This document shows, piece after piece, positions 3,001 through 59,025 of a DNA stretch of 64,000 nucleotides (positions are counted from its first letter, which is position 1; every line of letters begins with the position of its first letter). A program made the translations under genes and the position numbers. The notes beneath the pieces were generated by a model that made no database searches, was not told the origin of the DNA, and saw nothing but the letters and a program-made list of their open reading frames with translations. The stretch covers positions 14,002,213 to 14,066,212 of the forward strand of contig OZ234493.1 of NCBI GenBank assembly GCA_965153455.1, read 5' to 3'. This DNA comes from Sphagnum compactum (Eukaryota).

Positions 3001-3779
3001 GTATTCAAGCTTATACACATAGAATTTTTGTAAATTACATGAACAAATGTGGAATTGATAATAGTTGATTTTTTTGCAAATAGTTCCTTAGCACCCACAA
3101 AGGTTGCATCTTGTGGCATATTTAATATGTAATATTTCAAATTAACTAACTGAATATTAATTATTAATTTATGACTTAATTTATTTAATTATTATGAACT
3201 AGAAATTAGATTAAATATTAGCCTTTAATCTACATTAATTAATCTAAAACTAATTTAGACAATTTGTGAAATTAAAAGTAATGTGTATATTTGATTAAAC
3301 ATTCATTAAGGGTGTACATATGGATATGTTTATATATACTTTGATGTCTTTTATTCAAATTCATATTAATTTTTTAAATATTTCATAATGAATTATTTGT
3401 TAATAATTAATCAATATGTAATATACTTAATTGATAAAAATTAATTAACTAAAATGAATAATAAAATATTCATATGAATTTATTAATCAAATTTTGTTAG
3501 TAAAATCAGATAATAATTAAATAAATATCTAAAATTGGATAATTAATTATTTAAATTCACTAACTAACTAACTATTTAAATTTAATTAATTAATTCAATT
3601 AATTTAGAAACTCATTTTAAAAATAATTAGGTGAATAATTACTGGATTATATTTGAATTCAAATCATCAATTATCAAAATAATTATTCTGATAATTAATT
3701 ATCTAATAGTTTGATACTTAATTATTTGATAATTAATTATACCATAAATTAATTAATTTCAAACTTTGAAACTATTTAA

Positions 3780-10330: not shown

Positions 10331-11649
10331 AAAAGCATGATTCCTGTTGGCGACATGCTGGAAATGCGCTATCTACATATGGCAACTTCAGTTTTTTTTC
10401 CCACAATATGGCTACTTTGTAGAGGGTTTTTTTTGTTTCCAAAACAATCCTTTGTAGGATTTGAAATGCCATTCTTTTGGTCACAAGGTGGCCAAATTTC
10501 ACTCCAAAAAAGAATGCTGTCGGTGGGCACTTGAAATCACAAGCTTGGTAGTGGTCTGTTTCAGTTGGCAATTTCCTTGCAGAGTTTTTTAAAAATACAA
10601 TAAAAATCTGTCATGATGTAGCCAAGGTCGCAATGACGCATAAAACAAGTTAGCCAAATTTGGATATTAATGAATGATGAAAGAAAAATAATAATGGAAG
10701 CAGCCTTCTATATAGTTAGTTGGCTACATACCCTCTAGAACATGGCATAAGGCTGCCTACTGAAGTTCATTCACATGATAGAAAAATGTGGCGATTTTCA
10801 CGAATTGTGGATATGATCATCGACAGTGTGACTGGCTAAATCGCAAAAGCCAAAAGAAAAAACCCTAGCCAAAAAACCACCGGTTTTTCAAAACTTTAAA
10901 GAAATAAATAGCCAATAATTCAAAAAATATTGTTCCCTAGATTTTTGGCAGGACAATTAACAGATCCGAAGTTATCTTCTTGTCCGACCGAGGCACGCTT
11001 TGTAAGAAAAGGCATCAAACTGTCTGTCATGCAGTTCTCCATCATCGTCAAAGTCCCAGGGGACTCCTTTGCCTCTGGCAGAGACTACAGGGTCTGGTGG
11101 TTCTTCTTGAGCAAGTTAGTCCAGAGGCCCACCGAAACGATGAAAACCTCTGCTGCTGCTGCTGCTGCACCTTTGATCAATGGCCAGCACGAGTCTCTCG
11201 TGGGCAATAATAAGCACTGCTCACCACTTGGCATCTTTTCCTGCTGTCTGTAGCCAATTTGCTGATGATGCTGAGCTGATGTCACTCTGGGGAATAATAA
11301 TAGGCACGTTATTATATAGAGAAGACTACAGGGGTATGATGGTTTTCCTCGTCCCTTAAGTCCAAAGGTTCTCCTAACGACTGACAACCTCTGCATCTTT
11401 CATCCAAGCAAGAATGTCGTGGGCGGCTGGAGTGAACCAGCAGCCACCAATGCACCAGTTGAGGATGAGCCCGTTAAAGCCGTTTTGCGGATGAACAAAA
11501 ATCCCATCCTCCCTGCCCGCATGGGTTTTTTTTTTTCCACCTCTTCTCTGCCCCAAAACTCTCTACCTACCACCTACCTCCCCCCTCCTACCTACGACCT
11601 ACCAACCCCTCCCCCCCTCACTCCATCGCCAGAGCTCCGGAGACGTCGA

Positions 11650-11790
11650 GCGGGAGCGAGCTTGGAGCAGGGGAGCTGTGGCTTGGAGCTTGGAATAGCG
11701 AGCTTGGAGCAGCGAGCTTGGAGCTTGGGGAGCTATGGAGCTTGGGGAGCTTGGAGCAGCGAGCTTGGAGCTTGGAGCTTGGAGCTGTGG
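11650..11790. repeat. GAGCTTG heptamer-based tandem repeat inside the MULE
   Basis: Repeated GAGCTTGGAGC(AGC) units. Confidence 0.8.
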
Positions 11791-11887
11791 CTGGAGCCGG
11801 AGCAGGACCCACGCAGGACCCAGGTAAACATCTTTACTTTTTTTCTCTTGTTATTTGTTTGTGGAATTGCGCTGCAGTGCAGCGTAG

Positions 11888-12700
11888 CGAAGAAGGCCCG
11901 ATGCACTGCAGCGCAGTGAAGAAGGCGACGGCAGCAACGCAGCCGTCGCCTTCTTCTTCTTTTTTTTGCAGCGGAAGAAACAAGAAGACAAAGAAGACGA
12001 CAACTTTGCTTTCTTCTTCCTCTTATTTTGCTGCGTTGCAGCGCAACGCTGTGAAGAAGGCGACGACAGCGTTGTTGCCGTCGCCTTCTTCTTCCTCTTG
12101 TGGAGCTGTGCTGAGCAAGAAGGTGCAAAGAAGAAGGCTTTGCTGCCATCGCCTTCTTTTTATTGTTTTGCTGCGCTGCAACGCTGCCGTCACCTTCTTC
12201 TTCTTCTTCTTTTGCTGCTTTTGCTGCGTTGCAGCGCAGCCCAGCGAAGAAGGCGACAGCAGCAATGCCGTCGCCTTCTTCCTCTTTTTTTTTTCCTGCG
12301 CAAGAAGGCGCAAAGAAGAAGGAGATGGCAACAAAGCTGTCGTCGCCTTTTACATTTTTTTTTGCTGCGCTGCGCTGCAGCGTAAAGAAGAAGGGGACGA
12401 CAGCAAAGCTGCCGCCGCCTTCTTCATTTTTTTTTGCTGCGCTGCTTTGCTGCCGTCGCCTTCTTCATTTTTTTCCTTGTAGCATAGCAAAGAAGGTGAT
12501 TGCCGTGGCCTTCTTTCTTTTCTTTTTTTGCAGCAGAGAGAAGAAAGCGACGACAGCTGCAACTTTGTATTGAAGAAAAAGAAGATGACAGCTGTCGCCA
12601 CCTTCTTCGATGGCTTTGCTACAAGGAAATGGCGACCTCCGCCTTTCTTTTGTGGTTTTGCTGCGAAGAAGGTGACGACAGCAATGTCGTCACCTTCCTC
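11888..12700. repeat. Array of ~9-10 GC-rich hairpin units (GAAGAAGGCGACGGC-loop-GCCGTCGCCTTCTTC), most followed by a T-rich tract
   Basis: Perfect 15-bp stem at 11918-11956; diverged copies near 11990, 12053, 12246, 12315, 12387, 12490, 12580, 12665. Confidence 0.85.
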
Positions 12701-12805
12701 TATGGTGGCGGATTTTTTTTTTCTTTGTTGTTGCTTATGATTTGGTTCATTAGAATTAACATTTAACAATAACTGGTGGTTTTTTCTTTAGGGTTGGAGG
12801 TTGTA

Positions 12806-14258
12806 ATGGTTAGGGGAAGAAGACTGAGAAAAAGCGGTGGTGGTGAGTTGGAAGTTAATAATCAAAATGTTGCTACGTCAGATGAGGCAATTCTTCTGCC
12901 AAATGTTGCTGTGTCAGATGAGGCAATTCTTCTGCCAAATGTTGCTGCAGGAGATGAGGCAGTTGTTGAGCCACATGTTGCTGCATTAGATGCGGCAATT
13001 GATGAGCAAAATATTGCTACATCAGATGAAGCAATTGGTGACCGAAGTAGTGTTGCATCAGATCAGCCAATTGGTGAGCAAAATGGTGCTCTATCATAAT
13101 TGAAACACAAGGATGACAGTTTGGTATAGATTGTTTTAGAATTTATGGACATTAGATAAAATACAGATTAAAAAAATTGTACAAGTGTCTTTAAGTTTAA
13201 TTATATCTGCACCTTCCATCATTTGTTGGAAGGTGCGGGATTTTTTTTGTCGAAATTTTTCTATTGTAATATCTGAAAACAGTTCATGTTTATAGGAGTA
13301 GTATGTGATTATGTGATTTTATGTTTTGTAATACCTGCATTCTATTTTTTGATCTCTCATTTTTTAGTTTAGGTCCGGAACTTGAATTTGACCAGGCTCC
13401 TCAGCCACTTGCACTTCTTTGTCCACCTAATTTGGCTCGGAAGGACAAAGAATGGACGAAGGTTGGGTCGAAATGGAAGTGCAAAGTTGTCACTTGCACT
13501 ATCGCATATTGTGCCAAATGGTTGTTGACCAAGCATTTGAAGGAGGTGCATGGCTTGGTGGCAGAACAGGCCAAACCTGGGAGGCCTTCAACTTCTGCAG
13601 GAGGTCCTCGACATCAAGACCATGCCAAAATGAATGCTCGCATATTGGGAAATGCAATGGCTATGCAAAGGCGGAATGATCAAATGGTTGCTAATCACGC
13701 TCGTGCCAAAACACAACGCGAGTGGAAAAACCTGGTAGCTGTTGCAAAACAGTGTCCACCATTCCCAAAACCAGCTTTGGTCAAATTAGTTTCAGAGCAA
13801 TTGTTGAAAGTGTTGGGCCTCAATGCTTGGGGCGTGGGCAGTGTGCTTCGAGATGCAACATCACGAATGGAGAAGGATGAAGATTTACAAGGGATGATTT
13901 GATCCACCTGTTGTGTATATGCACGACAATTAAAGACGGCATGGGATGTCAAAAATTGGGATCGAGAGTCTAGTAAAACAAGTCGGACAAAACAGTTGGC
14001 AGATGTTTTGGATTTTCATGAATCTAGAATGATTCATGGAAGGTAAGAAACAATAATAAGCAATGTTTATTATTTTTTTATTGCATTTCATCTAAGGTGT
14101 GTTAGGGTTTAACTTGGTGGTTTTTGGGTGTTTATAGGGTTTAAGACCAAACACATGAAGAGTTTATTGCAAATGCAGTTCAAGTTGAGATGCAACGTCG
14201 CCATTTTTACACTGCTTGTCATGCAACAAAGGCTGCAAATGCAGCAGTTGCAAGCTAA
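12806..14258 (+). pseudogene. Decayed spliced gene inside the MULE: 12-aa acidic repeats, C2H2 zinc finger, GRP (AT-hook-like) motif, helical C-terminus
   Basis: Coding blocks 12806-13123, ~13368-14042 and 14138-14258, with GT/AG boundaries (14042|GTAAG ... TAG|14138 keeps frame). CKVVTC-x12-HLKEVH at 13480-13551, then KPGRP. In-frame stops TAA 13097, TGA 13900 and TAA 14142 are each one C>T change from CAA/CGA. Confidence 0.7.
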
Positions 14259-14699
14259 ACACGGGATGTAGATACTGATATGGGTTAGGGTTTCACTCTA
14301 TATAGTTTGTTAGGTTTTGTAGCCCTTTTATTTTTTGGACTACCCAATTTTGAATTTTGATCCTTTGATATGTTATAGAGAACCAACGCTTTTTTTATTG
14401 GGTTCTTTAGTAATTTTTCATGCACCCATTTTTGTACATCTTTTATCAATATAATAGTATCTTCTACTCACACTTGTTTTATGGGTATATGGTTAATCAT
14501 ATGTCTTCTTTGTCATAATTTTCGTAGTACTTGAGATGTAAGAATCAAACCAAAGATCAAAATGAACATTATGCAATACTTACATCTAATATAATAGGAC
14601 TCACATCACCTGAAGAGTTTTAAAACAATACACACATTTTAAACATATAATACCTACATCATTTTTTATTATAAATTCCATAAGGAGATTTTCAAATAT

Positions 14700-15005
14700 G
14701 CTACCCGCATATAAGACCTAAAATAGCCGCAAGCATTTTGCATTCATTGCAATACCCGCATATAAGTCCCATAATAGCCGCTGGCATTTTGCATTCCTTG
14801 CAATACCCGCATATGGGCCACAGATAGTTGCTGACATTCTTCATTCGTTGCAATACCCGCATATGGGTCCCACGATATTCACTAGGTTTTTTTAACATTC
14901 CTTGCAATACCCGCATATAGTTTCCATAATAGCCGCTGGTTTTTTTTGGCATCTCTTGCAATACCGCATATAGGTCCCATAATAGTTGCTGGTTTTTTTC
15001 ATTCA
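14700..15005 (-). repeat. ~50-55-bp tandem repeat carrying TTGCAATACCCGCAT (about 6 copies)
   Basis: Motif near 14701, 14747, 14798, 14848, 14902, 14957; it is the reverse complement of the motif in the 79-bp arrays. Confidence 0.85.
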
Positions 15006-15114
15006 TTGCAAAACTTACATTTTGTCATAAAATTAATTCAAAATAATAATTAATTTAGGTATATAAAAAGACATATTTTGGGTACCCAGAGCACTTATTT
15101 GTTATTTTGAAATG

Positions 15115-15395
15115 ACGTTACATGTGGGTATTGCATTTAGGGTTTAGGGTCTTCACATAAGGTTTGCCTTAATCACCTATGGATTATTTCAGTATGAACT
15201 TACATGTAGGTATTGCATCTAGGCCTTGGTCTTCATTCAAAGGCGCACCCAAACTACATATTGGGTATTTCAAAGCGACCTTACATGTGGGTATTACATT
15301 TAAGGTTGCCCTTTCATTGTAGGTTTTACCTTATTCACCTATGGGTTATTTTGAAATGAACTTGAATATGGCTATTGCATTTAGGGTTAAGGTTT
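15115..15395 (+). repeat. Diverged ~80-bp tandem repeat (ATGTGGGTATTGCATTTAGGGT)
   Basis: About 4 diverged copies of the unit seen at 16381-16890. Confidence 0.7.
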
Positions 15396-16380
15396 CGTAT
15401 AATTTTGACCCACTATATGATTATTTTAACCAAGAATTTATTTACTATATATTAGAAAAGTATATAATAAAATTTCAATCAAACATATGATTAATATGTG
15501 GGAGAGATCATTTTTATTATTATGTGAAACATGAAAGAAAAAGTAAAAATTTATGTGCTTTGATTTTTTTTTAAACATAGTTTAAAATTTTATTAAATTA
15601 GTGACTTTATATTTATGTTTATTGAAATCAATATACAACTTTAAAAGGGGGGAAGAAAAAATGAACATCTTTGAAGAAATTTTAAGCTTGAACTTTTTAT
15701 TTTTTGATCTCAACAAACTTTGTATTGCATTTAGGGTTGGGTTTTCACATAAGGTTTGTTTCTTACCTTTGTGTGATAACTCCGACCTAATTTTCCCAAT
15801 CTTTTTGAAGAAAATATAGAATGAGATTGTATTGTTTCACATATGTCTAAACCCAAAAAATTTCCCCCCAATCTAATATAAAATATTTCTGATAATTAAT
15901 GTATTATCAAGAAATTTTGTCATATAATTAAATAATTAATAGACCATTATTTCAGATAATTTAGATGATTAATTATCAAGAATTAGATAATCATTTATTT
16001 ATTTGAAATAATTGACTAATCATTTGGCTTAACTTTATTTACTTGGATAATAAAAAGTTGGATCTAAAAATCAGATTGATTAATTTGATATTTGATTGAT
16101 TAACTTAAGTATATTTTTGTTTTAATAAGTTATTGAAATCACTATTTAAGATAATTATTCCATGTTATAGATTGTAAGTTCAGTTTTTTCATGAAAAATT
16201 CCTACACCAAGAGAAGCTTGATCACAATTGTCATTGTATTATTTGTTCCACAAACAATACAACCTCTTTTCAAATTCATGAAACAAAATAAGAATCATGG
16301 AACTCCTAATCAACAACCCTAACCTCTATACACACCTTTGTTAGCATATTAATTTGAAATTAACTAATTATTTTGGAGTG

Positions 16381-16890
16381 ACCCAAAATGTAGGTATTAC
16401 ATTTAGGGTAGGATCTTCATTTAAAGAAGGCTTAAACCCCACATGCGTATTTTTGGTGTGACCCAAAATGCAGGTATTGCATTTAGGGTAGGATCTTCGT
16501 ATAAAGATGCTTAAACCCCACATGCGTACTTTCGAAATGGCCCAAAATGCAGGTATTGCATTTAGGGTAGGATCTTCGTATAAAGATGCTTAAACCCCAC
16601 ATGCGTATTTTTGGTGTGACCCAAAATGCAGGTATTGCATTTAGGGTAGGATCTTCGTATAAAAATTGCTTAAACCCCACATGCGTACTTTCGAAATGGC
16701 CCAAAATGCAGGTATTGCATTTAGGGTAGGATCTTCGTATAAAGAAGCTTGAACACCACATGCGTACTTTCGAAATGGCCCAAAATGCAGGTATTGCATT
16801 TAGGGTAGGATTTTCATATAAAGAATCTTAAACCCTACATGCGTCCTTTCGGAGTGGCCCAAATTGCAGGTATTGCATTTAGGGTTGGGT
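16381..16890 (+). repeat. 79-bp tandem repeat, about 6.5 near-identical copies, each containing TTTAGGG
   Basis: CCCAAAATGCAGGTATTGCATTTAGGGTAGGATCTTCGTATAAAGATGCTTAAACCCCACATGCGTA... starting at 16382, 16462, 16541, 16620, 16700, ~16779, ~16858. Confidence 0.95.
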
Positions 16891-17944
16891 TATTTCACAG
16901 TGATTTTGCATGTGCATATTGTGTTTAAGGCTAGGTTTTCACTTAAGGGTATCCAAACCATTTAGATGGGTTTTTTTGAAACGTGGGTATTGCATTTAGG
17001 CTTGTTTTTTCCTTTCAACTTGAAATACCCAAACTTATACTTACCTCTACCAACTAGAATTTTGGGGTTTCGTTGCAATACCTACACCCGTACTTACCTT
17101 TACCAATTGGAAATTTGGGGTATTACTTGCATTTGTATTTATTTTTACCAACTGGGATTTTGGGGCCTAATTATAATATCTGCATTTAACACTAATATTA
17201 TCATTATCCTTGTGTTTTTGCATTTCACACTTTTTGTGTTTTTTACTTGGAAACAATGATAAGCTTTGTGCCATATTATACTTCATGTGTGTGTTGAATA
17301 CATGATGTTCAAACAATTTGGGCTATGGTTTCCTCCATACAAAATTGATTCTAAAACAAAATTTTTAATGCCAATGGCAACAATCTTGATTAATAATTGA
17401 GACATTTATTAAGGTAAAATATTGGTTTTGAAATATATGAACCAAATTCCTATACACTAAATCATAAAGCATAACCCTACAAATCCAAATGATATTTTGC
17501 CATAAGCCTTATTACAACCCTAACTATACAAACCCTAACAAAAAAAAGATTTAGTGATATATGCCTTAAACCCAAAAAACTATACAAATCATATAATGCA
17601 AAATAAATAAAATTTAAAAGAACACAGGAAAAAATTTAGAAACCAAAATTCAAAGGTTTTAAATTATAAATATTTATTAACTGAAAGAAAATACGTTAAT
17701 CTTTAAAAATAATCAAATAAATTTCGTACAAAACCAAAAAAAAAGATATGTCTTTTACCTTTGTGTGATTTTTCCAACCTAATTTTTCCACTCTTTTTGA
17801 AGAAGGTATAAAATGCAATTGTATTACTTCACATATGTGTAAACCCTAAAAATTTCCCCCCAAATCTAGCCTACTTTAAATTAATTACTATACATTTATG
17901 AAAAACTTTTCAATTAATTTATGTGTCTCAACCCTAAACCTAAT

Positions 17945-18090
17945 GGTTAAGTTAGTAGGGTATGTAATTAATAGAGTAGCTAGGTTAGTAGGGTAGGTGG
18001 TTAGTACAGTAGCTTGGTTAGTAGGGTAGGTGATTAGTACAGTAGCTAAGTCAGTAGGATAACTAGTTACTAGGTAGTTGTGTCAGTAGG
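17945..18090. repeat. Subterminal short tandem repeats (GGTTAGTAGGGTAGGT / TTAGTACAGTAGCT) near the right TIR
   Basis: Three to four diverged copies visible. Confidence 0.65.
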
Positions 18091-19860
18091 GGATAATAAA
18101 TAAGGTACCAAGGTTGGTGCAATACTTATGAGGGTAGGAAAGTGAGCAGGGTAGCTATGTGTGAGGTCAGGTCCAAGAAAAACAGCCAAGAACACGAAAA
18201 AAAAAAAGAAAAAAAAAAAGTACAGTGGTCAGCAGCAAAAAGAAATGGACTGTGATGAACCCCATCCGGCGCCGAATGAAAAAACGCACGGCATCCAGTG
18301 GACAGAACGACCAAAACTGGTGCATTGGTGGCTGCTGGTTCACTCTGGCCGTCGTGGGCACGAAGTGCTGATCACTAACTGGCATTATATTTATGTATCC
18401 TGCTGCGGGTAATCGATAAAGCCAGGTTTTTAGGCACCTTTGAGCTCAGTCAATCGATCAAGCTGCTAATTCACAGTTGCCAGCGCCAGCTGGGTGACAG
18501 TCACCACCAGGCACCAGTACCTATTACGCTAGCAGAGTTTTGTTCTGGAATTTTTAATGTAGCCTCAGTGGCGATCATCATCTATAGACAGATGTTTCAA
18601 TTGGAAACGGTGATCATCCTTAGGAAGATTTTTGAGAGATTTGGCCATAAACCAGACATGAAGTACAAATCTTTTAATCTCTCACCTATACTTATGGCTA
18701 CATCCTGAAAAACCAAATATATGAATCTAGAGCTTTTTACTCATTTTTCGCTTCAATTCTGACTATTGAAACCCTCTGAAACCACTTCATTATCGATTCT
18801 TTTAATTTTCAATTTCCACTTTCTGACGAAATTTCGCCAATAATTAAAGAAAAGGCTGAACTGTACTACCATCTACCTATCCACCGGCTAGCTATAGAGA
18901 GAGTGAAGGGAGCTGGTAGCTAGGAATTAAGTATTTAGAGTTCAAGGACTAGTTCAACGCATGTAGAACAATTAATTAACTAAGATTCAATGTTGAAGAA
19001 AATAATATCTCTTCAAATCTTCCAAAAGATTTTCTATTATTTCTCACATTATGAAAATGCCTTGTTCTTTGGAAAATTTCAACATTTCTACAGTGAATGT
19101 AGTTGTAGGAGTCAAAGCCACCAAGGTACGTACAACCCTATAAAGAGAATACCAGTAGCAGATGGATCATCAGTGTGAAATTCAGCTTCAATTGCTAGTC
19201 CGATTGATTTCTCTTGAGGAGGTTGTTTGATTCAAGGTTCTTCTCTGATCTTCTCATTTGATTTCCTAGTAGTCAACTTCCTGATTCTCTAGACCCTTGC
19301 ATATTAATTTGAAGCATCTCTAGCGTTGTGTACTTTCCTCAATGCATTGATCTCAGCATTATTGTTTTTATCTAGTCTTGTTCACGCAAAGGATCAGCTT
19401 GCGCCTGAGCTTGAGCTTTGGCTGCAAGATGTCTAAGATGGTTGTTGAAATCGATGTGCAAAACTTAGCTAGGCTAGGGGTTGTGAGATGTTGTGAATCT
19501 GTTCATGCATATGATGCAAGGGAGTCACCATTGTTGTGTATTTGTATATTGACATGAAGGCAGCATTAAGATATGGAGGAAGAGTTGCACTACACTCATA
19601 CCAGACATGCATTAAATTCCAAGCAGAACTAGATCTCTTTATCCCACATCTTCCCCAAGGGACAATATGAGAGTAAACTGTTTTTCATATGTGATTTGTT
19701 AGTGTTGTTTGCAAATACAATCTAGTGAAATTTTCAAGCTGTAAAACGAATTTGGATGCAGTTGTTCATGTTGCGTCCTCATTTGCTTTTGACGTCTGTA
19801 CTTATTAGAGGGTACCCATTTGATGATATATAGGTTGCAAAGACTTGGAGCAACGAAATC

Positions 19861-34392: not shown

Positions 34393-34834
34393 CTAAATGA
34401 AACCTTTTCTCAATGATCTTGCAGTGGCATGGTATGTCCGGACAACTAAACCAATGCCAATGCCAACACCGAGACACATGCCAAGCCCAACTCCCACACC
34501 CACCCTTACTCCTGCATTGAACCATGTCATTTGTCCATCATCCCCCCCATCCCCATACCCATCATATCCACTCAGACCTCCTCCTTCGAGAGCACAACCC
34601 AATCCTGCTGCAGCAGCAGCTTCATCATCACAAAGGTGATTATACCCACTGTTGCCTTCAACAAGGGCATCATAATAGCCTAGTCCTCCAGCTCCACCAT
34701 CTTTGTCACTGAAGCCCATGAATAGATTGCCATCTGTTCTCTGCAGGACAGAGAAAACCCAACAATAACATAAGCCACAGCTTTCCCTCTTGCAAACTGT
34801 TTGTGCAGGAGCTTCTCTTAGGGTTTGGTTGCAG

Positions 34835-34871
<37 letters not shown>

Positions 34872-35909
34872 ACTTACAAGTCGAGGCTGGTCGATCATCA
34901 TCAAGCAGCGTCTACTGCTACTGCGCTTTCCAAGCTCTTCAGCTTCGGGAATGACATCCAGCGTATTCTTCTGCTGGCGGTGAGAGGAGGAGGAGGAGGT
35001 TCGTCGTCGTGCTGCGGTGAGAGGCACGGTTTGGCTGAGAATCACAGGCGTTTCCGAGTTTCGTCCCACCAGGCACACTTCCATAGTTATCTCGTGGTAG
35101 AGCTGCTTCTTGGAGGAAACAATACGTCCCCCCGCTGCTACCTGTCCCACAGCGCAAATGCAATCCATGTTCCATGAGGAAGAGGAGGGGGAGGAGGAGC
35201 GACGATGATGACGAAGACCAGCAGCAGCTTCCTTTCTCCACCCATTGTAGTTTCTTCCTTGCTCAACGCAATCCCTTTCTGAATGCTCCAGTATTCCTAC
35301 TACTAGCAGCTCGTCTTTGGAGAAGACTTGGAAGGACAATGGACCGCTGCAGGTTCGCACATAGTCTGTGCTCAAGTATGTGGCTTCCGCGGACTCCGGA
35401 TCGACTCTGTCTCTTTTGAGAAGAAGAGTCGCTTGCTCCGATGGAGCAATCCTGGCGCCATTCAGTTCTAACGCTGTGCCAATACTGCGAGGTGGGAAGC
35501 TCATGGACAACGACTCAGGCGCTTCTTCTTCACTGCAACAAAATCCGCTCACTCGGATATATATCACTCTTACATCCAACCACGACGCTGCTGCGTGAGG
35601 AGCAGGAGGAGGAGGCGGAGGAGACGGCATCATCGCCGCTGCTGCTGCGAACCAAAACGCATCGGGTTTTGCTTTGCTTTCCGCCATGCAGAGCGGACCG
35701 CCAGCGACCTCGTGGTGGTGGTTCTCCATCATCTCCCCACACTCCGTCTCGATCACTTGTTGTCTCTCAGGCAAATGAAAAGGATTCTGACAGGAAGAAC
35801 CAGTTTCCCTCCTCTCTGCTGCACATTCCAGATACCTACTCAGAGCCACCAAAGCGGGTCCGAGGCTCCTCCTCCTCACAGAACCATTCCCCGTATTTCC
35901 CTTACACAT
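34393..35909 (-). CDS. At1g01500-like conserved plant protein with a C-terminal Gly-rich hydrophobic segment; 2 exons, up to 459 aa
   Basis: Exon 35909-34878 (donor GTAAGT) joins exon 34740-34393 (acceptor TGCAG) in frame. Motifs WLDVRVIYIRVS, LELNGARI, LKRDRVD..S.EATYLSTD and WFNAGVRVGVGVGLGMCLGVGIGIGLVVRTY match the family as I recall it. The true start may be a downstream Met. Confidence 0.88.
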
Positions 35910-37340
35910 GGGCGACTACCAGCAACAACCTATCCTCTTGCGGAAATTTGTTCCGATCTGCAAACGCAAACAAAAAGCCCCAGCTGGATCCACCACCCAC
36001 CACCCACCTCCCGCATTCTTTGATTTCCGGCTGGCTCGCTGAACAATCGCCTCCCCTCCTTCCTTCCTTTCCTTTCCTTCCTTCCTTCTTTCGACAGCAG
36101 ACCACTGACGCAAACAGCTTCTAAAGACAAGAAATCTCCCGCGAAAGACGACCATGCGAAATCTCTACAGAAATCGAAAAAAATCCAAACCCATGCTACG
36201 GTTCTCGATCTGTGGAGCAAAGAGGAACACAAACTCCTCCAAGGAGCAGTAAATTGGAAACTCTTGTGCTTCTCCTACGCTAACCAAAATTCAGAAACGC
36301 CGGGGGGGGAGGGGGAAACCATCCGAGATCATACAAAGAAGATTTTGGGAAAATATTTCTAGATGCAATTCCTGAGCAGATGCGCGGGATTTGCAAAGGC
36401 ACAGAGCGAGCGAGAACGAGAGCGCGCGCGCACGAGAGGAGAGACAGAAGAGAGAGGGGCGAGCTTGACGAGAGGGAGAGAGCGGGTTCTTGTGACCTTT
36501 CTGCACTATGGCCACTGGCCCACAGGACATGGGGCGGGCGGGGCCCCCTATGTTGAGTGGCCATGGCCATGGCCATTCATTGATCAGCTTTCTATTGTTT
36601 TTTTTTTTTTTTTTGGATGGATTTTGATTCAAGAGGAGGAGGGGGTGGAGGAGGTAAGTTTGGTCAAATTTGCAATCGCAATGACCAATGCTGAGCAAGA
36701 GGGTAGGATTATAAGATCATTTTTTCTGATGGTTTTTTTCTTTTTTCTTTTTTTCCAAGTGACTAAGGGTGTTTGGAGCCCCCCAACCACCCCCCCCCCC
36801 CCTCCCCCCTTTCCATTTGATTTTTTTTTAAAAACATTGGCTATCAAGTTTAGGTACATTATCTGTATTTTGGATCAGCTTTTTTTTTTTTGGACATATC
36901 TAAACCTCTACACATGATCAGGGACTTTTTTTCAATTTTTTAAGTAAAATAAATTGGGGAAAATTCCCCCCCCACCACCCAAAAAACCAAAATCAGTCCA
37001 ATGCACACACTTTTAAAAAAAACATTCCTCCAAAAGTGTCCCAATTATTTTGTTGAAAAAACAACAAAATTTGTGGAAAAAGAAAAAATCACTGCTCTCA
37101 TGTGAGGGTTTTCAGAATTTGCTGATATGAATTATATGATAAAAAAAGATCCAAAATTCTGGTAGATATTAGTGGCCTAGGATAATAATATATGCATGTA
37201 CATGGACAAGTTTTAGTTTGGCTTCTGGTTTGGGCAATATCCTAGATTGAAATTAATTGCACTAGATCTTTATTGCAAGTAAAGTGCCACTTGGAAAGCA
37301 AAAACACTTGGAAAGCAGAAATGGGAAAAAATTCAAGAAT

Positions 37341-38435: not shown

Positions 38436-39828
38436 AAAAACAAAACACTAGTTTGGTATGCCCCACGGAATCCTAAACATTGTAGTAGCCACTCTGCCAA
38501 CTACACCAAGAATTTCATGAGAGGTTGTTAATGCATGTATAATAGAGTACCATAGACTCGGCACCTTAAGATGTGTAAGGCACACCTCCCCTATGCACGG
38601 ATGACAACTATTTTTTAGAAGTTTTGATGGAGTTTTGTCTAGTTCCAATTCCACGGTCGACTCTAGTTTCAATTTTAAAAAACTCAAATCAACAATTCTT
38701 CAGAGCCTCAAGAATCAATTTGACAACTCTTAAGGAATGAAGAACAACCTTCAAAAATAACTAGTCCGATGATGGTTCTGGGAGTGACAAAAATACTATC
38801 TATCTTCAAAACCAAAATCCTTCAAAATATTATATCTCTCTAACTAGTGTCAAGTTTCAACACAAGCCACAATACCATCTTTCAAAAATCCTCATATGAA
38901 AATAGATCTATTACCTAGGGGCTAAAATCCATTAAGCTACTATACTCTATATTGAATCTAAATGCAATACCCTTGCCTTGGTAGGCAAGGCCAACAAAGT
39001 AATCAACAACTCTGCTATTTCAATCTATCAATTCTCATCTGTGTGTGTGGGAGAAGAAACACTCATCAATGCCCAAAGTGCAATATGGCCGAGGTTATTA
39101 AGCAAAGCTAAAAAAACCATTCCAAACTCAAATTGAGTACCTAATTGGATCATCACTCAAAATTATTTAAAAGTGGTCATTGAATGTGACATTGAAACAT
39201 GCACTAAGGAAGGCAATGGAGTCTTAGCTCAAAGCATCTTGTCTTATTAAACCCTAAAACCCAAATCATCTTGTCTTATTAAGACTAGAACCATTAGAAC
39301 TAGGAACCAATGATAATTATTTTTTGACCTAGACCCCAAAACCTTTTCTTTTAATTTTTAAAAATAAAACCAAAACCAACGGTTCTTTGTTTTTATGAAA
39401 AATGTAAGAACCAGAATTGATGATTCTTTTTTTTAAATCCTGAGAACCAAGCAACACTACAATTGACTACTTTTTTTTATGTTTCAATGAAACAGATGAT
39501 GATGGGATGCAAAAGATTTTGAGTTATTCAACACGAATTTAAAATATATTGATTATAGGAAAACACCAATATTTCCGTTAGGCTAATATTTGGCAAACAT
39601 CCTTCGCACTTGTTTTAATGCTTGCTACCCAATTGCCCGCTTTTGTTTTAGGTGAATCTTTTTTTAAAAAGCCCATCAAGGAAAATTCCCAGTAGCTAAT
39701 AATTTATTAACAATGGTAAACCCAAAATCCAGATGTTGGATGGACTATGCTTCAAAGAACCCTACTATTTCAACATTCTCCTTTTGGCCTTTGCAAGTCC
39801 AAGACTTAAAGAAGCCTTTTAAGTCCAA

Positions 39829-56732: not shown

Positions 56733-59025
56733 ATGGCGGCCTCCGAAAAAGTTGTTGAAGTAAGCCATTTTCTCCTCATGTAGTGGCATTTCTTTTCTGT
56801 TTTTTTTCCATGCGATCGTCTCTGGTTCTCTTGTGGGTGAGGATTTTGTTGAAGTTTTTTGTTTGTTTTTTGGTTTTGTTTTGTTTTGTTTTTTTAAATT
56901 TTTAATAAAGAATGTTTCTAGGGATTTTGGACTGAGGGTGGCTTCAGAGGGACCGATCATAAGAAGCTAAATGGATTCGTGTTTCTGCTTTGCTTGGGGA
57001 ATTCCAATATGTAGCCATTCACAACGCAGCAATTATGGCCGCCGACCAAGGGGATGTATCCGATTACGAAGGCGATTGTGACCATCATCTTGTTCCATGG
57101 ACTGCAAATGCCGGACGCGAGGGATGCTTGGAAGACCACCTGGACGAACAACTCGAATGTGTGTTGGCCTCAGGAGTGGCTGCCGGAGGATCTCGGGAAG
57201 GAGAAAGTGAGGGTGCTGTCCATGTCCTACGACTCCACTGCCACTAGATGGGTTAAAAACCAAGGCAATACGAAGCATGTGCAAGACATCGGCTCCGAGC
57301 TCCTCGAGAGTTTCGTCACCACGTATGGTGCCTTCACCCTCTAGTCCACAATTACAGACTTCAGCATTATAAGCTTTCCTGGCCTTCTTTCAAGTCTATG
57401 ACAGGGAGTGAGGAAGTTAGGGTTAGGGTTAGGGTTTCTTCTTCCTCTATGTGGTCTGACTAAATTGAAAAATCAACAGAGGGTTTTCACCTTCTGTTCC
57501 ATACCATGCAGAGAGAAAGGAGGGGCGTTGACATGCATATTCTGTGAATGCAAAGAGTGCAAAATTCACTGTTGGATTTTGTATTTGGGAATTCCAGTCA
57601 GAGAAAAGGTCATAGTTGCAAGGACCCCTAAATTGTGCATAATTCTATGGGGTCAACACTAGAGGCTTGATTGGCCCAGACTGTGTGGGGATATAGCTCC
57701 TGGGTCCATTGTCACAGGCAGTGCGACTGATGCTTTTACCTATTAGGGCTTTGCCTAAAGATGTTACTAAAGATCAGCAAAATTCTGTGGTAAGGTAAGT
57801 CTCAGTATTGGAGTGAACAGTCAAAGGTGGTGGCTTGATGGTCACCCAGTTCTCTCTTTTCAAACACTTGCTTTGCTCCATGTTATGAACTATAAAACCC
57901 TGAAACCTAAACCCACAAAACATATGATGATTTCTATTTTCGATCTCTTAGAGAATGATTTGTGTTTAGTACTGTTTGCAGATTGCCTGCTTCCTGTCTT
58001 TCCATTGCCTTCTCCTTTGTGGACATAGCTACTTCTATTACAGATGATTTCATCTCCTTCAGAATATATTGGAGGTCTGCAGACACTTGATGCCTATGCA
58101 GGCAGTATTCATTCATCTAGTCATTAGATTGTCAAGATTGAAAGTCACTTCAAATCACAGATTATCAATGAAAAGCCATCAATTGTCATTGACCTCATAC
58201 AAGAGTTGAGAATTTGGTCATCACCAGTGACTCCTTGGGGGAAAAAATTCCAATAGTGGCAAAAGTTGGATGATGCATCAGGATATATCATCTGACGTAG
58301 AGTATTTTTTTGCCACTTTTTTTGCAGGAAGGAGTGGCAGCTTGATGTTGATCAAACAATTGTGCTGATTGGGCATAGCTTTGGGGGTTTGGTAATCAAG
58401 AGTTTGATGGTGAAGGCTCATCAGGCTGCACATCGTCGGCCTGCAAATCAATTAGATAAATACAAGAAAGAGATGTGCACAAAATTTTTGGCAAATATCA
58501 GAGGCATATTTTTTTATGGAGTTCCCCATACTGGTTCGCTGATTGCAGACTTTTTCAAAAATCTGAACAAAGTATTTCCCTTGCAACTGGCTGGTATCAT
58601 GAAAAATCTTCTTCCTTTCCAGAAGGATATGGAGCAACTCTCCGTTGACTTTGAAGATGCAATTGATCCAGAAAGAGTCACACTCTATGCATTTGCAGAG
58701 AAATGGAAATACAATAAGGTCCACTCATTGCCCAAGCATTAGCAGTTTGTCCGATCAATGAAATGATTTTCAGCACGCAGGTTCTCATATATTTGTTGCA
58801 AGTTCCTATGTGTTGTGACTTGTGACTCACAGGTATTCTGGGTGGGCTTTGTAAATGCAGGTCTTGGTCGTGCCACCGGCTTCAGCAATTCAATTGACAG
58901 GTCTCAATAATGTTTCTCTTCATGCCAATCATGTTGAGATCTGCAGGCCACCCAGCAAAAAATGTCTGGGCTATACGAAGCTCCTGGAGAAAATTGAGTT
59001 TATCAGGGGAGAAAATTTAATTTGA
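56733..59025 (+). CDS. SERAC1/DUF676-like alpha/beta hydrolase, stand-alone; 4 coding exons, 296 aa (possible extra 5' exon from ATG 56603)
   Basis: Exons 56733-56759, 57015-57322, 58328-58718, 58861-59025 join in frame (891 nt). Motifs IILFHGL, CWPQEWLPEDL, RVLSMSYD, LIGHSFGGLVIK (GxSxG), FFYGVPHTGS, VVP..SA, ANHVEICRP. Confidence 0.9.

Follow-up and report, generated by a model that had tools for sequence, protein, structure and literature searches.

Boundaries and terminal repeats of the element

The DNA analyzed here, referred to as the window, is a stretch of 64,000 nucleotides from the moss Sphagnum compactum (assembly GCA_965153455.1, contig OZ234493.1, positions 14,002,213 to 14,066,212 of the forward strand). 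It contains a mobile element that carries a single gene, encoding a protein with one C2H2 zinc finger, and, mostly 3' of this gene, many copies of a 15-bp word. On its sequence features, the element probably belongs to a high-copy, non-autonomous, Mutator-like cut-and-paste family of Sphagnum-type mosses, of which the window holds a dead copy. An earlier note, made from the letters alone, had described it as a Mutator-like element (MULE) without a transposase, bounded by 36-bp terminal inverted repeats (TIRs) and an exact 9-bp target site duplication (TSD), and this description is supported by the ends and the coding content of the element. The element and its ends are as follows.

11416–11424 (no strand): left copy of the TSD, GTCGTGGGC, identical to 18351–18359
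11425–18350: element body, a mobile element with inverted ends and a target duplication
11425–11460 (+): left TIR, 36 bp; terminus shared by 20 other loci whose flanks are unrelated
18315–18350 (−): right TIR, 36 bp; identical to the left arm at 34 of 36 positions
18351–18359 (no strand): right copy of the TSD, GTCGTGGGC, identical to the left copy

The 9-mer GTCGTGGGC abuts both TIR arms exactly; with the register fixed, nine letters would match by chance with a probability of 4^-9. The arms differ at two positions (GGCTGGA on the left, GGCCAGA on the right), and this difference is a family-wide trait, not decay: GGCCAGA occurs in 3 of 3 right ends (the window, L046, and L061), and GGCTGGA in most of the 20 other left ends aligned. 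These other copies come from a set of 80 metagenome loci (L001–L080, the best 80 of at least 361 places). Of these loci, 21 show the TIR core 5' of the gene, and two, L046 and L061, include a right end. Aligned ends agree as far as the terminal GG and then diverge completely, the exception being L070 and L080, which are one locus; the boundary of the element is pinned to a single base by 23 ends. Because the base beyond the terminal GG varies from copy to copy, the duplication is exactly 9 bp, a length measured in the window copy, as no retrieved locus contains both ends. In the reconstituted empty site, the longest spanning open reading frame (ORF) is only 45 amino acids, which does not point to insertion into a coding exon.

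The 9-bp duplication of this one copy falls within the 8–11 bp of MULE TSDs (PMC6446971), and the 36-bp arms lie at the short end of the TIR ranges in Table 1 of that paper. A DDE transposase, as carried by autonomous MULEs, is not encoded by this element. None of its ORFs of at least 110 amino acids is transposase-like, and a Pfam search with the six-frame read-through of 14260–18302 returned nothing beyond one chance-level row. No transposase was seen by eye among the ORFs of at least 130 amino acids of 17 long loci. Thus, no copy examined encodes a transposase, in agreement with what the earlier note had stated of the window copy.

Other plant superfamilies have TSDs of 2–3 or 8 bp, in contrast to the 9 bp here. 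Membership in another cut-and-paste superfamily, the 9-bp duplication being atypical or coincidental, is quite improbable. It would accommodate the single measurable TSD, the lack of a transposase linked to the family, and arms that are short next to the hundreds of base pairs often seen in plant MULEs (PMC6446971). However, the 9-mer is exact, the boundary is fixed by 23 independent ends, and Table 1 of PMC6446971 includes MULE groups that combine TIRs of 20–40 bp with a TSD of 9 bp.

A three-exon gene for a single-finger protein

The gene occupies the left part of the element and has three exons.

12806–13073 (+): exon 1; basic start MVRGRRLRK, then acidic 12-residue tandem repeats (P0286 and P0027 models)
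13074–13372 (+): intron 1; one RNA contig (run X7) joins the exon 1 repeats to the start of exon 2
13373–14042 (+): exon 2; finger at 13480–13551, KPGRPST at 13570–13593, helical remainder
14043–14137 (+): intron 2; supported by X2 and X3 contigs, GTAAGA...TTATAG retained in other copies
14138 to ~14271 (+): exon 3; C-terminal helix

This structure is backed by two gene models from Sphagnum balticum, P0027 (281 amino acids) and P0286 (347 amino acids), and the splice signals are retained in 10 of 10 loci examined. The acidic repeats of exon 1 are encoded by a 36-bp repeat (6.3 units, 12863–13090). Exon 1 varies between 268 and 571 nt in nine other covered copies, all retaining the donor GTGAGC.

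The finger has the form C-x4-C-x12-H-x4-H, with C37, H55, and H60 invariant and C42 present in at least 90% of 20 sequences. This is a classical C2H2 spacing, and the pattern is retained in relatives at 27–45% identity. It is followed in exon 2 by the blocks KPGRPST, QDHxxMNA, LVKL, and WGVGS. The earlier note had reported a spliced C2H2 gene with a GRP motif. The gene is present, with exon bounds corrected to those listed above; GRP occurs only within KPGRPST, and the conserved part of this block is RPST. An AT-hook consists of an R-G-R-P core with basic flanks. The sequence here is K-P-G-R-P-S-T, with (R/H)-P-S-T conserved across lineages, and is not a canonical AT-hook.

A structure model made with 30 close relatives was poor (predicted local distance difference test score, pLDDT, 44). 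With distant relatives added, the mean pLDDT was 70, and residues 21–70 (84–96) formed a strand-strand-helix unit followed by long helices; of this second model, only the finger and some helices are good enough to use. Local Foldseek matches, covering 28–38 columns, were to Ars2/SERRATE first and then to TFIIIA, Kaiso, SWI5, and CTCF, none of them significant. The ESM Atlas returned only sub-threshold C2H2-type leads, with structural template modeling (TM) scores of 0.24 or lower, and Pfam zf-C2H2 touched only the distant relative P0157 (E 0.0063, below cutoff). Taken together, the conserved ligands, the two-strand and helix model, and the local C2H2 fold matches make the finger fold credible. 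Judged by composition only, a protein with a basic start, an acidic repeat arm, and a single finger could plausibly serve as a nuclear activator or an anti-silencing factor.

Arrays of a 15-bp word

About 4 kb of AT-rich DNA 3' of the gene carries two tandem arrays with different units, along with further copies of the word that these units share.

14571–15020 (−): minus-oriented motif block, including a 51-bp tandem array at 14702–15011
15122–15380 (+): four scattered plus-oriented motif copies, ~81 bp spacing
16371–16885 (+): 79-bp tandem array, 6.4 units, each containing ATGCAGGTATTGCAT and then TTAGGGTAGG
16981–17087 (no single strand): two more motif copies (plus at 16981, minus at 17073)

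Allowing up to two mismatches, the word ATGYRGGTATTGCAW has 24 matches in the window, of which 21 lie at 13326–17087 inside the element. In 100 shuffles of the window, the mean was 1.47 and the maximum 4, so the earlier claim of about 20 copies of one ~15-bp motif in tandem arrays stands. The remaining 57 kb contains three weak matches. The exact form GGTATTGCA occurs 16 times, 15 of them inside the element; the single outside copy, at 38963, is followed by TTTAGA and may be the remnant of a related repeat or a chance match.

The word is minus-oriented from 13326 to 15020 and plus-oriented from 15122 to 16995, with one minus copy at 17073. The 51-bp array has ~6 units, and the minus block lies 800–1100 bp 3' of exon 2 in other copies too. 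Only in the 79-bp units is the word perfectly palindromic. The two repeat units share the word although their flanks are unrelated, and it occurs in both orientations and also within intron 1 (one copy, 13326–13340). This makes it the best candidate for a target of the finger protein. The element has, in short, dense arrays of a short motif, built from tandem repeats, in its own non-coding DNA, as is characteristic of the VANC type of system discussed below.

The arrangement is a property of the family. L061, L062, and L070 are collinear with the whole element at 82–94% identity, and exact GGTATTGCA occurs at the offsets of the window, including the intron 1 copy, in 27 of the 31 loci with 1.2 kb or more of sequence 3' of exon 2. 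The four loci without such copies are L012, which is truncated, L025, which has an internal deletion, and L053 and L059, which contain the same fragment of the gene. The earlier suggestion that gene and motif arrays go together in this family is thereby upheld. An extra block of 79-bp units is present in L061 (6089–6370), just inside the right subterminal region, indicating that in this family array units come and go and change position. In L062, a ~820-bp insertion (13019–13840) with a 148-amino acid minus-strand ORF splits the 79-bp array; it is probably a nested repeat.

In plus-oriented copies, the word is directly followed by TTTAGGG(T) (15136–16885 and elsewhere in the element), which we take to be the plant telomere-type heptamer. 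The element, which makes up 10.8% of the window, holds 12 of the 21 plus-strand TTTAGGG copies of the window. In plants, proteins are known to bind telobox-like sites, and with such a heptamer adjoining the word, a host factor might also read the arrays.

Subterminal repeats and palindromes

Four further repeat features lie between the ends and the features described so far.

11563–11607 (+): left subterminal CCTACC repeats, four copies, 141–173 nt from the end
11658–11786 (+): GAGCTTG heptamer / 47-bp tandem array
11880–12700 (+): GC-rich nested palindromes, GAAGAAGGCGACGGC...GCCGTCGCCTTCTTC units, length variable among copies
17951–18058 (+): right subterminal 16/33-bp array (GTTAGTAGGGTAGGTG) with GGTAGG

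The GGTAGG of the right array, ~300–400 nt from the right end, is the reverse complement of the left CCTACC. Three to seven copies of CCTACC are present at the same offset in 10 of 10 other left ends examined. With 3 of 3 right ends examined, the repeat is therefore found at both ends of the element, inverted and read inward.

This symmetry bears on a different role for the finger protein, that of a transposition cofactor which, in the manner of MURB with MURA, TnpA of En/Spm, or the Myb-like ORF1 protein of PIF/Harbinger, would bind the element ends (CCTACC) or the transposase and aid excision or integration. The internal arrays would in that case be satellite-like and without a role, or serve as parts of a promoter or enhancer. 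The contact between MURB and the N-terminus of MURA (PMC12973397) and the DNA-binding role of mutB (PMC6446971) offer precedents for such a protein, and selection at the level of lineages, described below, fits any function that aids movement. A mere satellite, however, is hard to reconcile with a 15-bp word that recurs in two unrelated units, in both orientations, and in an intron. The two motif classes also overlap, as the 79-bp unit contains GGGTAGG, and they are not cleanly separable. We regard the cofactor role as unlikely.

The palindrome block is ~0.8 kb long, with arms of 39–42 nt that are 86–92% complementary. Its variable length accompanies a distance from TIR to exon 2 that ranges from 779 to 2895 bp among copies. 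Folded as RNA, 601 nt of the block reach −302 kcal/mol, compared with −213 kcal/mol in shuffled sequence (z −13.7). The block could give rise to a hairpin RNA or be a recombination hot spot.

A foldable stretch 5' of the gene would also fit a protein that acts on RNA through an RNA- or protein-binding C2H2 finger, of the Ars2/SERRATE, JAZ, or zf-met type, for example on double-stranded RNA from the palindrome block, should this be transcribed, as a suppressor or modulator of RNA silencing. The best local folds are indeed those of Schizosaccharomyces pombe Ars2, human ARS2, and Arabidopsis SERRATE (28–38 columns, root-mean-square deviation 0.7–2.1), and the neighbors in the ESM Atlas are zf-met and zf-C2H2_jaz clusters (score 0.79). 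Yet none of these matches reaches significance (E of 0.4 or worse in Foldseek; in the Atlas, values under 0.9, which are leads only), and the DNA-binding fingers of TFIIIA, Kaiso, SWI5, and CTCF score similarly. This alternative is highly improbable.

Family members and relatives

Searches with the 176-amino acid exon 2 protein (P0001) yielded 590 relative clusters at E ≤ 0.001 among 696 candidates of 96–308 amino acids. The best 120 are 70–91% identical, and one of these is from Sphagnum balticum. Among metagenome contigs, at least 361 of at least 600 pattern matches encode a relative; the TIR pattern had 0 matches in viral contigs. A profile search of 1.84 billion representatives gave 398 matches at E ≤ 0.001, and none of the 150 listed exceeds 232 amino acids. 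Likewise, no homologue that was fused or longer than 308 amino acids appeared among 725 candidates, which is weak evidence.

Relatives at 27–45% identity keep the exon 2 blocks and the end of exon 2, and form deep, multi-copy sister lineages; the P0263 lineage has eight clusters of its own. The DNA of these divergent lineages was not found among the retrieved loci (tblastn, no match at 55% identity or above). No second element with the same terminal 15 nt turned up in the 80 loci and the window; the single further match, in L073, was unrelated and due to chance. The literature searched contained no account of the family or of MULEs in Sphagnum.

An 873-bp fragment corresponding to window 13354–14225, which covers exon 2 and intron 2 and reaches into exon 3, is identical in L053 (9983–10855) and L059 (6122–6994). 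It lies in unrelated DNA, without TIRs or arrays, and may be the leftover of a deletion or a captured piece.

Decay, selection, and expression

The window copy is dead. Its reading frame is broken by TGA at 13900–13902 (Arg in relatives), by TAA at 14142–14144 (Gln in relatives), and by the deletion of five nucleotides after 14252 (TACCG, present in contigs of all four RNA runs). At least one exon 2 stop is present in 74 of 81 copies, with the same codons hit repeatedly, and indels are rare. L075 is open through three exons in the range examined and L047 in exons 2 and 3, and L010 and L026 have one exon 3 stop each. G>A and C>T account for 55% of the changes relative to the majority sequence, and the rate at CpG sites is ~1.8-fold higher, a pattern suggestive of methylated, silenced repeats.

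Signs of selection accompany this decay. The pooled ratio of nonsynonymous to synonymous changes per site (pN/pS), copy versus majority, is 0.41, compared with 0.81 ± 0.055 (minimum 0.67) in a neutral simulation using the observed base-specific rates. Variants were further classed in 68 copies, after 8 near-duplicates and copies covering less than 640 nt had been dropped. The nonsynonymous to synonymous (N:S) counts are 202:59 for private variants, near the 3.2 expected under neutrality, and 84:60 for variants present in at least 9 of the 68 copies (Fisher p 9.6e-5), the latter class including recurrent hits at hypermutable sites. Leaving out C>T and G>A, the counts are 161:52 for private and 27:26 for shared variants (p 6.9e-4). 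In the finger codons, they are 7:13 for shared and 27:7 for private variants. Shared variants are thus poor in amino acid changes relative to private ones, which points to selection during the spread of the family. Tempering this conclusion, besides the recurrent hits, are the transversions, for which counts of 135:29 and 20:7 do not differ significantly (p 0.3), and the sampling of the 80 loci, which as the best tblastn matches are biased toward well-kept genes. In our reading, the protein mattered in the lineages that multiplied, and inserted copies decay freely. The earlier note had named neutral evolution of the zinc-finger ORF among copies as a finding that would speak against it; neutrality holds for the decay of single copies and fails at the level of lineages, where shared variants show purifying selection.

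The same result makes a captured passenger unlikely. As the earlier note had itself raised, the element might be a Pack-MULE, a non-autonomous MULE with a captured host gene whose conservation reflects the host parent. It resembles one in being a transposase-free MULE-type element with gene-like cargo that includes introns, plant MULEs commonly capture genes (PMC6446971), and the distant relatives of the P0263 group could be host genes. In contrast to Pack-MULE cargo, however, which consists of host gene fragments with a parent, the gene here is whole, running from a start of its own through three exons to a stop. It is fixed in the family, being present in every member seen and in hundreds of copies, and is under purifying selection within the element family, as seen from the shared variants. 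All relatives found are multi-copy and mostly decayed, both among the 398 representatives (232 amino acids or less where listed) and in the eight P0263 clusters. No annotated or single-copy parent was found among the 590 and 398 relatives, and no longer or annotated host protein among the homologues searched, although the distant relatives may include a parent. The gene is the element's own, and a Pack-MULE is very improbable.

Relatives of the gene are present in moss and plant metatranscriptome runs. Of the sampled words of the stretch, each run covers less than half, the best share being 0.26. These data are assembled contigs from four runs, in which depth, strand, and transcript ends are not readable. 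The one X7 contig makes its junction with the start of exon 2 at 13372. Contigs of runs X2 and X3 have identical records and may come from a single data set; in them, 14043 is connected to 14161 by 22 diverged exon 3 letters. The spliced contigs indicate that the family, taken as a whole, is at least sometimes transcribed and spliced as predicted.

Proposed function and relation to known transposon systems

The structural account of the element given above is likely to be right. TIRs, TSD, and a retained gene under selection point to a MULE-type element with an accessory gene, set apart in that this gene alone is kept and selected in a high-copy family without a transposase. As to how it works, a MuDR-type transposase supplied in trans by a partner would recognize the TIRs and the subterminal repeats, the inverted CCTACC repeats being its likely binding sites. 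The finger protein would be a family-specific trans factor that raises the chance of expression or movement of its own family, and its acidic repeats would serve as an activating or anti-silencing module. It would most likely bind repeated words in the non-coding DNA of the element, with the ATGYRGGTATTGCAW arrays as prime candidate and CCTACC as the second. That the internal arrays in particular are bound is, judged from sequence, a tentative proposal that we are more inclined to doubt than to expect.

Several observations weigh against these readings. The arrays grew by tandem duplication, so the 21 word copies are not 21 independent events. Although the word block is among the best-kept columns of the 51-bp and 79-bp units across copies, this profile comes from local nhmmer alignments, which favor a central block. 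P0001, P0015, and P0286 match no Pfam family at E up to 10 beyond chance-level rows, and by the same result show no homology to VANC. A sequence profile search of the PDB gave chance rows only (E 0.46 and 2), and Foldseek gave no PDB match at E ≤ 0.001. The residues of the predicted finger helix appear atypical of base-reading fingers, and the top local fold match of the model, the finger of Ars2/SERRATE, is not base-reading. Most RNA contigs over the gene are unspliced, many of them across both introns, and may be DNA carry-over. Finally, placement in the Mutator superfamily draws on one TSD and the TIRs, and would be firmer if a transposase were linked to the family.

A more specific and speculative proposal, which we consider unlikely, is that of a "split" selfish system that has shed its transposase and whose spread depends on retaining a sequence-specific factor of its own. 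This factor, an orphan single finger with a fast-evolving acidic arm, might bind the word of the internal arrays and thereby open the chromatin of its own element or recruit a foreign transposase, an idea to be held just as loosely. Equally conjectural is the corollary that such a system would be a convergent, unrelated bryophyte counterpart of VANC or TnpA, with each deep lineage matched to its own motif.

To our knowledge, DNA transposons have few accessory genes, most of these are confined to particular lineages and not understood in their action, and VANC and TnpA are the only well-studied transposon proteins that read short words amplified in their own element. The binding motifs of TnpA are 12-bp subterminal words. 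Non-autonomous Mu elements, as far as we know, do not as a rule keep the accessory gene.

A close parallel is VANDAL21 (Hiun), an Arabidopsis MULE with the anti-silencing protein VANC21. VANC21 binds YAGTATTAY, which is concentrated by tandem repeats in the non-coding DNA of VANDAL21, including the VANC intron, and the variable regions of VANC are tandem peptide repeats (cited passages of PMC5735166). In both systems, a MULE-encoded accessory protein accompanies dense copies of a short word in the element's own non-coding DNA, tandem repeats gain and lose units, copies of the word lie in an intron of the accessory gene, and a conserved protein core is joined to hypervariable tandem peptide repeats. 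The moss protein is unrelated to VANC, with a C2H2 core, and is the product of the only gene of its element, whereas VANDAL21 also encodes the VANA transposase and VANB. The moss arrays form two opposed blocks, unlike VANC21 sites, which have a single orientation. Binding and loss of methylation have been shown for VANC and are hypothetical for the moss protein.

TnpA of En/Spm is likewise an element-encoded, sequence-specific regulator that binds many short repeats of its own DNA and affects expression and movement (bioRxiv 10.64898/2026.08.24.746577). En/Spm differs in having CACTA ends and a 3-bp TSD, and the main moss arrays are internal, at least 1.3 kb from either end. According to the same preprint, transposon regulators such as TnpA derive from transposases; no such origin is suggested for the moss protein.

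Like MuDR of maize, with its transposase gene mudrA and accessory gene mudrB, the moss family has a body bounded by TIRs, a 9-bp TSD, a lineage-restricted accessory gene whose biochemical role is unclear, and non-autonomous members presumed to be moved in trans, as are the relatives of MuDR (PMC6446971 and PMC12973397). It differs in retaining the gene in every copy, in its 36-bp TIRs as against ~200 bp, and in having no known transposase-bearing member. MULE accessory proteins are diverse (PMC12973397), and MULEs may carry extra ORFs such as mudrB, mutB, vanB, and vanC (PMC6446971). Among these other elements, Spectre of aphids has a C2H2 second ORF, 74-bp TIRs, and an 8-bp TSD, and Mutyl of Yarrowia has a DNA-binding second ORF (mutB), 22-bp TIRs, and a 9–10-bp TSD (PMC6446971). 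Unlike the moss element, both also encode a transposase; their hosts are an arthropod and a yeast, and the cited passages mention no motif arrays for them.

The moss family is an independent case in an early-diverging land plant, in which every copy keeps the accessory gene and not the transposase. If the protein reads the arrays, pairs of an own factor and an own array would arise repeatedly from unrelated parts, and a finger with a 15-bp word would be a tractable example. If it does not, the family remains useful for the annotation of Sphagnum genomes, as a clearly delimited repeat not described before.

Other features

An Rfam scan of the whole window gave no match. In L015, just beyond the left end of the element (3225–3683), an ORF resembles by eye the C-terminal part of a Helitron/PIF1-type helicase, to which it may correspond. 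Among the ORFs of the window outside the element, two are each probably a host exon. The first (34818–35915, minus strand) is GC-rich, encodes 365 amino acids without a Pfam match, and is flanked by (CT)n-type runs. The second (58296–58742, plus strand) encodes 148 amino acids and has weak alpha/beta-hydrolase (DUF676/PGAP1-like) matches below cutoff.

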